DNA of 13,699 nt from a virus (Duplodnaviria > Heunggongvirae > Uroviricota > Caudoviricetes). Below, one piece after another: positions 4,555 to 5,094 of this stretch. The stretch lies in IMG/VR virus record IMGVR_UViG_2537561934_000011. One strand, given 5' to 3'. The first letter of the stretch is position 1. The number at the start of each line of letters is the position of its first letter. Below the pieces are notes generated by a model, which saw nothing but the letters and a program-made list of their open reading frames with translations, did not search any database and had not been told where the DNA came from. A program made the position numbers and the translations under genes.

Positions 4555-5094
4555 ATGCAACTACTTACATACCAACAGACTAGCGGATTTAGCCCGACTG
4601 CGGTGATAAATCGTTCTCAAACAAAACAGGTGCCAGGCCACGAAAAAATCCGTGATGCCGTCCGCGCTTGGTCGGCTGAAGATAATCAGGATGTCGTTGC
4701 CACACTCATTGTGAATGAGTATCGGGAGCAGGGCGGCGGCACTATCGATTTCCCTGATGATGTCAGCCGTGCACGCCAGAAGCTGTTCCGCTTCCTCGAT
4801 AACAAATTCGATTCTGAAAAATACCGAAATAACGTGCGTGAACTGACCCCGGCAATTCTGGCGGTACTACCGCTGGAATATCGCGGCCACCTGGTTGAGC
4901 AGGATAGCTTCATGGCTCGGCTGGCTGAAATGGAAAAGGAACTCTGTGAGGCAAAGCAGGCGGTCATTCTCAACGCACCACGCCACCAGAAACTGAAGGA
5001 GATGAGTGAAGGCATTGTGTCGATGTTTCGAGTGGACCCGGATCTGGCTGGTCCATTGATGGCGATGGTCACCACCATGCTGGGGGCAATATGA
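4555..5094 (+). CDS. YdaT-like lambdoid early-right protein (cII position), 179 aa
   Basis: ATG with SD AAGGAG 7 nt upstream. Motifs EYREQGGG and LTPAILAVLP resemble Rac YdaT as I remember it. Sits immediately upstream of the O-like gene. Confidence 0.5.
   Translation: MQLLTYQQTSGFSPTAVINRSQTKQVPGHEKIRDAVRAWSAEDNQDVVATLIVNEYREQGGGTIDFPDDVSRARQKLFRFLDNKFDSEKYRNNVRELTPAILAVLPLEYRGHLVEQDSFMARLAEMEKELCEAKQAVILNAPRHQKLKEMSEGIVSMFRVDPDLAGPLMAMVTTMLGAI

Follow-up and report, generated by a model that had tools for sequence, protein, structure and literature searches.

The stretch of DNA considered here, 13,699 nucleotides long and called the window below, is a degraded lambda/phi80-like prophage remnant at the icd (e14) attachment site, and it is colinear with the icd prophage remnant of E. 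coli 042 and of many clinical isolates. The left part of the gene order comprises icd, int, xis, DUF4222, a TraR-like gene, the gene of a DGQHR protein, DUF1317, exo and a bet pseudogene. The right part comprises a 'transcriptional regulator' pseudogene, the gene of a YdaT-domain protein, a truncated replication protein gene and IS1, followed on the far right by a recombinase pseudogene, a McrB-like ATPase gene, the McrC gene, an icd' fragment and iraM. The subject of this analysis is the gene of the YdaT-domain protein. With a cro fragment upstream and O downstream, it occupies the cII slot of the rightward early operon (Table 1).

Table 1. Features of the remnant around the cII gene (positions are those of the window; an empty strand cell marks a feature given no strand).
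Feature	Position	Strand	Description
bet 3' fragment	4061..4342	-	about 93 codons; annotated by RefSeq in E. coli 042 and EC2341 as the pseudogene 'phage recombination protein Bet, missing N-terminus'
Deletion junction 4342/4343	4341..4344		blastn break points and three-way alignment; bet' joined head-on to 'cro
YdaS-type cro 3' fragment	4342..4485	+	last 47 codons and stop; RefSeq pseudogene
cII ORF	4555..5094	+	ATG start, 179 amino acids; RBS AAGGAG at 4543-4548, 7 nt upstream; PF06254 match
Candidate -10 TAGTCT	4577..4582	-	putative leftward activator-dependent PRE-like promoter
YdaT-box-like dyad GTGATA-AATCGT-TCTCAA	4603..4620		cII codons 17-22, nt 49-66; candidate CII operator
oop-like antisense RNA unit	5102..5206	-	promoter, hairpin and T run between cII and O
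O gene 5' part, IS1-truncated	5181..5664	+	Pfam Phage_rep_O, E 2.9e-34; PhiR47_2 homology ends at 5664
IS1 truncating O	5665..6432	+	terminal repeat 5665-5687; InsA and DDE_Tnp_IS1 domains; end inferred from the canonical 768-bp IS1 length

Downstream of cII, the oop-like unit corresponds in the alignment to a phi80 segment whose annotation reads 'M3 RNA, homolog of lambda oop RNA'. Its promoter-like site, TTGAAT-17-CATAAT with a TG element (5206-5178, minus strand), has a scan score of 9/12 and a predicted start near 5171, and it is followed by a hairpin with a 10-bp stem (5143-5111) and a T run (5106-5102), with a fold of -24.6 kcal/mol and a z score of -3.9. The stem is kept in mEp237 through base changes, which together with the M3 alignment indicates that the antisense unit has been retained. 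The search of the window with Rfam at the gathering threshold returned nothing. In lambda, the gene order is cI-cro-cII-O, with the oop antisense RNA downstream. The O gene that follows probably starts with the ATG at 5181, which has GGAGG ahead of it and is conserved in the alignment with the starts of phi80 gene 15 and mEp237 O; the RefSeq start at 5091 is probably 30 codons too early. Short internal repeats are present in the truncated O (5532-5643, corresponding to self-matches in PhiR47_2 8972-9083), and these probably represent the iterons of the origin, comparable to the annotated gp15 binding sites of phi80.

The outer parts of the remnant carry additional genes and insertions. The DGQHR/DndB-like protein (354 amino acids, 2168-3232, minus strand; Pfam DndB, E 3e-46; TIGR03187, E 1e-55) is encoded in the leftward early operon, flanked by the TraR-like gene on one side and DUF1317/exo on the other, at a place where PhiR47_2 has other small genes. 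It could represent defence or anti-defence cargo carried by the phage. A McrBC-like pair lies at the right end of the element (7432-11309, plus strand). McrC (PF10117) is intact. The gene of the McrB-like AAA_5 ATPase is interrupted in the window by a second IS1 (about 8881-9648), while E. coli 042 and EC2341 have it whole (1,956 bp). In the otherwise identical remnant of EC2341, a further IS1 splits the integrase gene (1501-3420 of the EC2341 stretch); independent IS1 hits gather in the icd element in different strains.

Family, fold and relatives of the encoded protein

The Pfam scan of the 179-amino-acid protein gave PF06254 (YdaT_toxin) with an E value of 2.6e-29 and 101.9 bits against a cutoff of 21. 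The match spans protein residues 67-154 and profile positions 1-90 of 92. It was the only Pfam match at E <= 0.01, with no match to the lambda CII profile (Phage_CII), and the NCBIfam search with the same protein gave no match. At the sequence level, the solved YdaT structures 8bt1 (CP-933P YdaT) and 3c4r are matched weakly, over residues 28-128. The AlphaFold2 model, built on 33 homologues and with a mean pLDDT of 77, has disordered residues 1-27 and helices at 29-43, 45-58, 70-82, 88-104, 107-112, 119-138, 143-160 and 162-177. In the Foldseek comparison of this model with the PDB, 3c4r and 8bt1 were the only significant matches (probability 1.00, target-normalised TM 0.65-0.69, 26-27% identity). 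The predicted fold is a five-helix, POU-like HTH domain with a long oligomerisation helix behind it. In the alignment, R79 is the counterpart of Rac R57, the conserved DNA-contact arginine of the recognition helix, and F80 replaces W58; among the 33 homologues R79 is invariant and F80 is at least 90% conserved. The earlier note had called the gene YdaT-like and had proposed a profile search as the check. The PF06254 match and the Foldseek matches to the two solved structures show that the family was named correctly.

Closer relatives are found among the phages. The PhiR47_2 gene annotated cII encodes a protein that is 98.9% identical over the full length (tblastn against phage genomes), and the genes annotated cII in 16 deposited complete lambdoid phage genomes are 95-99% identical to the 179-amino-acid protein, those of 4A7, Perceval, D2, IdasGreatGrand and others being at 95-98% (tblastn). 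Full-length tblastn identity is 72% for Enterobacter phage CobraSix, 66% for mEp237 and 65.6% for the CII of phage phi80. In the phage relatives (six phages), cII is flanked by a cro-like gene and by the replication gene O, and a divergent repressor lies upstream. The same context was surveyed at 67 loci of species-representative Enterobacteriaceae genomes with homologues 40-74% identical. A small plus-strand ORF lies just upstream of the cII homologue at all 65 loci with full context; it matches YdaS_toxin in 44 of the 65 and HTH_3, P22_Cro or Cro in others, with overlapping Pfam counts that do not establish Cro-likeness for every one of the 65. A divergent HTH_3 ORF is present at 60 of 63 loci, in 37 cases with Peptidase_S24. 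These counts identify cI-cro-cII as the rule in Enterobacteriaceae. Judged from its sequence and relatives, it is close to certain that the product of the gene is a phi80-type CII of the YdaT family.

The earlier note remarked that the protein is larger than K-12 YdaT. The difference is real, as K-12 YdaT has 140 amino acids and is 36% identical to the present protein over a 96-residue BLASTP alignment, in which His5 of K-12 YdaT pairs with His29, leaving a 24-residue N-terminal extension. The length is not anomalous, since nearly all (more than 100) of the best 120 database homologues have 178-182 amino acids and phi80 CII is matched over its full length.

Comparison with the known systems defines the position of the protein further. 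With the phages that encode a phi80-type CII (PhiR47_2, 4A7, Perceval, mEp237) it shares the length of 179-180 amino acids, the slot between cro and O and the oop/M3-like unit downstream. The difference lies in the surroundings, as the cII of the remnant is cut off from cI, PR and the cro 5' end, its O gene is truncated and the phage is dead. With the YdaT of Rac and of CP-933P (O157:H7) it shares the Pfam family, the predicted fold, the role of a CII analogue and a dyad of TGAT-N8-ATCA geometry at the 5' end of the gene. It differs from them in the 24 extra N-terminal residues, in two extra predicted C-terminal helices (143-177) and in having F80 at the position of the conserved Trp that follows the DNA-contact Arg. 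Moreover, the repressor and the cro partner are still present in Rac and CP-933P, whereas in the icd remnant they are lost and truncated, respectively. Lambda CII is a functional analogue and not a sequence member of the family, as only PF06254 was matched; it binds direct TTGC-N6-TTGC repeats, whereas the YdaT family binds an inverted repeat. The analogy between the YdaT family and lambda CII has been argued before (PMC8630535, PMC11879457).

Pfam and RefSeq name such proteins 'toxin YdaT', and ectopic expression of Rac YdaS/YdaT impairs growth (PMC5700377). Both would suit a toxin of a YdaS/YdaT toxin-antitoxin pair whose antitoxin was lost and which is either inactivated or lethal if expressed. 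This explanation is extremely improbable. Experiments have identified YdaS and YdaT as analogues of Cro and CII rather than a toxin-antitoxin pair, with YdaT homologous to phi80 CII (PMC8630535), and YdaT is a tetrameric POU-like HTH protein that binds the DNA sequence TTGATT-N6-AATCAA (PMC9986795). The gene considered here fills the cII slot of plaque-forming-type lambdoid genomes, the would-be antitoxin partner next to it is a truncated cro, and the 179-amino-acid protein shows no inactivating change. Rac YdaT is indeed toxic on expression and normally silenced, and it activates the host rcsA promoter (PMC11879457). The toxin framing is outdated, since proteins of the YdaT family are CII-like transcription factors rather than toxin-antitoxin toxins (PMC8630535, PMC9986795, PMC11879457).

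The earlier note also considered a disarmed variant. The protein differs from PhiR47_2 CII by two substitutions, L3 (P in the phage) and C131 (S in the phage), both in variable columns: position 3 is mostly S or T among the homologues, and A, S, G or C occur at position 131, with C131 also present in a 2,064-member cluster. All 56 of the 56 invariant columns of the 33-sequence alignment are kept, and since every family-invariant residue is retained, a disarmed variant is not supported. The same evidence bears on the idea that the gene is a pseudogene in all but name, in which L3 or C131, or the loss of upstream DNA, has already inactivated the protein or its translation. Such an idea draws on the two residues and on the company of the gene, as bet, cro, O and the McrB-like gene around it have all been disrupted. 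Given the variability of both positions, and given a start codon and Shine-Dalgarno sequence identical to those of PhiR47_2 cII, it is very unlikely to hold.

Deletion of the immunity region and expression of cII

The alignment of the window with PhiR47_2 falls into two blocks. The left block (blastn, window 3300-4343) equals PhiR47_2 2793-3836 at 97.4% identity and covers the bet fragment, which forms the left side of the deletion; the right block (window 4342-5664) equals PhiR47_2 7782-9104 at 98.3%. Relative to this phage 3,945 bp are missing (phage 3837-7781), a figure that holds for that reference only, as the immunity region of the ancestor may have been different. The lost PhiR47_2 genes are the 5' two-thirds of bet, gam, kil, gevA/gevT and cI, together with the cI-cro intergenic region and 87 bp (29 codons) from the start of cro. 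According to its annotation, phi80 has OR, PRM and PR in the cI-cro intergenic region. The junction sequence reads …CATAGATA joined to TAAGTGG…, and the overlap is a TA microhomology of only 2 bp, which indicates an illegitimate deletion. The joining of the two ends also made a chimeric 62-codon ORF (4297-4485, plus strand), which starts at an ATG in antisense bet and continues in frame with the last 47 cro codons.

The gene had been described in the earlier note as left without an adjacent repressor or cro, in the setting of Rac-type prophages. A repressor gene is indeed absent from the whole window according to the ORFs, Pfam, NCBIfam and the RefSeq annotation. The statement on cro holds for the first 29 codons, which are lost, and fails for the rest, as the last 47 codons and the stop remain; 46 of these 47 residues (98%) are identical to PhiR47_2 Cro residues 30-76, and they cover positions 26-60 of 65 of the Pfam YdaS_toxin profile. 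The missing repressor and the broken neighbours are accounted for by one deletion plus one IS insertion. The element itself is not a Rac-type prophage: it lies at icd, has a lambda-type O (Phage_rep_O) and YqaJ-type exo with bet, and is 97-98% identical to PhiR47_2. A Rac-type prophage would have the RacR-YdaS-YdaT immunity module and the replication genes ydaU/ydaV, at the Rac locus.

The removal of the OR/PR region raises the matter of transcription. The sigma-70 consensus scan of the plus strand at 3900-4555 gave no site of at least 9/12, and the best that the lenient scan of the same stretch gave were two candidates at 8/12, impaired in their spacing or in the -10; such scans miss weak or non-sigma-70 promoters. 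A promoter made at the deletion junction was considered as well and rejected, as TATAAG (4342-4347) has no usable -35 and fails as a -10. The DNA upstream on the plus strand is antisense to the leftward operon. The first gene met there in the same orientation is icd, at a distance of 4.5 kb, and weak read-through from it over this antisense stretch is conceivable. In Rac, ydaT is co-transcribed with ydaS from PydaST and has no promoter of its own, the ydaS-ydaT spacer showing no promoter activity (PMC11879457). Because no consensus promoter is found upstream and Rac ydaT lacks its own promoter, the cII gene of the remnant is likely to be transcriptionally silent. Three options had been offered in the earlier note, namely silence through promoter loss, different control and a disarmed variant, and the first is the one supported by the sequence.

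Such a loss of promoter may also explain how the deletion was tolerated. Repressor loss is lethal in Rac (PMC5700377, PMC5700373), and the loss of cI alone would derepress cro-cII-O. The deletion would be survivable because PR was lost together with cI.

The distribution of the gene has two levels. Among 5,426 complete E. coli genomes, 2,216 (about 40%) carry the present cII allele (at least about 95% nucleotide identity), and about 193 of them have the deleted configuration, counted as one place covering at least 80% of window 3900-5700, at about 99.9% identity. Sequence similarity this close would fit vertical inheritance within a single lineage. The ORF and its strong Shine-Dalgarno sequence are intact in all copies inspected, but since the lineage is nearly clonal, this intactness has no power to discriminate between selection and neutrality. 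In deletion carriers (e.g., NZ_CP033401.1), two places match 4343-5094. Such genomes probably contain another prophage with a related cro-cII, whose CII could act in trans on the candidate operator of the orphan gene described below.

The course of events can be outlined as follows. The cII gene is of the type that regulates the establishment of lysogeny, and it belonged to a lambda/phi80-like prophage which entered the chromosome at icd and later decayed. In the intact phage, cII is transcribed from PR as cro-cII-O, and its product, with a predicted HTH and a long helix (a tetramer in the solved relatives), would activate the leftward promoters that switch on the repressor. A single illegitimate deletion of 3.9 kb joined the bet 3' end to the cro 3' end and removed cI, OR/PR and the cro 5' end, and IS1 cut off O downstream. 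The cII ORF was left intact but deprived of its promoter and of cI, its main target, and it persists, most probably, as a silent passenger kept by recency and neutrality. This account as a whole, a phi80-type cII stranded by the mapped deletion and most likely silent through promoter loss, is considered highly probable.

A candidate operator within the cII reading frame

The 5' end of cII shows an unusual pattern of conservation. In the codon alignment of 43 non-redundant homologues with less than 90% nucleotide identity, synonymous codon identity reaches 0.68 over codons 1-27 as against 0.48 over codons 28-179, whereas amino-acid identity behaves in the opposite way (0.41 vs 0.62). No other 27-codon window exceeds 0.54 in synonymous identity, and the difference is maintained in distant pairs (0.65 vs 0.45). 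Rare codons are fixed in this region, with CTT for Leu4 and ATA for Ile18 each in 37 of 43 homologues, and several third positions in codons 1-27 are invariant across amino-acid replacements. An alternative explanation for the constraint is selection on 5' mRNA features.

Two elements stand out in the constrained region. The first is the dyad, with the consensus xTGATa-N6-xxTCAa, in which TGAT is conserved in 42-43 and TCA in 41-43 of the 43 homologues across amino-acid changes; some homologues read ATGATA-N6-AATCAA or TTGATT-N6-AATCAG at this place. The footprinted YdaT-box of Rac, ATGATT-CATGAA-AATCAA, lies across the start codon of Rac ydaT (PMC11879457). It was located at 1179-1196 of the compared sequence, and its geometry is the same as that of the dyad in the remnant; the latter agrees with the Rac box in 8 of 12 positions, leaving 4 mismatches, and was found only through the alignment. 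The two sites differ in placement, as the dyad of the remnant lies within the ORF and the Rac box over the start codon. The second element is a reverse-strand TAnnnT, which is present at the aligned position in 38 of 38 gap-free homologues, though the encoded residues vary. The dyad centre is 29.5 bp upstream of the TAnnnT edge, i.e., at about -41.5. It is possible, if rather doubtful, that the dyad and the TAnnnT are the operator and the -10 of a class-II-type PRE promoter within the 5' end of phi80-type cII genes, which would survive in the remnant as part of a CII-driven, leftward, rewired circuit. In lambda, a CII site is likewise embedded at the 5' end of its own gene cII.

In Rac, the YdaT-box acts on a reverse promoter about 190 bp away; at about this distance the remnant has a weak candidate, TTCACT-17-AACAAT (4421-4393), within the retained cro fragment. 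The scan with the Rac/CP-933P box TTGATT-N6-AATCAA at up to 3 mismatches gave 23 matches against 13.5 expected, none of them convincing. One match, in the cro-cII spacer at 4504-4521, has a perfect right half and could be an auxiliary site, a role so far unsupported. The unaligned enumeration of dyads in six phages gave no shared motif, and the search for a second copy of the dyad near int/xis (an analogue of PI) or elsewhere gave chance-level matches only. The direct repeat AGTCAATT in the spacer (4528-4535 and 4547-4554) was considered as a CII site and rejected, as the spacer sequence is absent from 4A7; phages of the 4A7 type have a cII that is 97% identical, a different cro and no spacer repeat.

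The candidate operator bears on whether the orphan gene still has a function. It might be expressed from a fortuitous or read-through promoter and act as a domesticated host or prophage regulator in the manner of Rac YdaT, which controls a host promoter (PMC11879457), or drive exo-DGQHR-xis-int through the embedded promoter. Consistent with such a role are the intact ORF with its strong Shine-Dalgarno sequence and complete set of invariant residues, the recurrence of the same configuration in about 193 genomes, and the candidate operator and -10 element retained within the gene. However, there is no consensus promoter upstream, the 99.9% identity of the carriers means that retention needs no selection, expression of the relatives is toxic and normally silenced (PMC11879457), and no further dyad core was found near int/xis or elsewhere beyond chance. 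Domestication is therefore unlikely, and the stranded, silent cII remains the preferred explanation.

An intact phi80-type cII in a decaying icd prophage is already known, is RefSeq-annotated and represents ordinary decay, with no new system involved, and the consequences of the finding itself are small. It corrects a misleading 'toxin' label, it resolves an apparent orphan into the product of one mapped deletion and an IS1 insertion, and it illustrates how a repressor can be lost safely from a prophage when PR is lost in the same event. The side observation on the embedded site may be more useful, and the YdaT-box/PRE hypothesis might be the only part worth an experiment. If true, the embedded promoter would explain the disordered, nucleotide-conserved N-terminal extension of 24-27 residues, and CII made here, or from a co-resident prophage of the same type, would drive leftward transcription. 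Such transcription, running through 'cro and bet' into exo-DGQHR-TraR-xis-int, would make the remnant a rewired circuit rather than dead DNA. For the family, the constraint would place the PRE-equivalent of a cII type present in about 40% of complete E. coli genomes within the first 70 nt of the gene.
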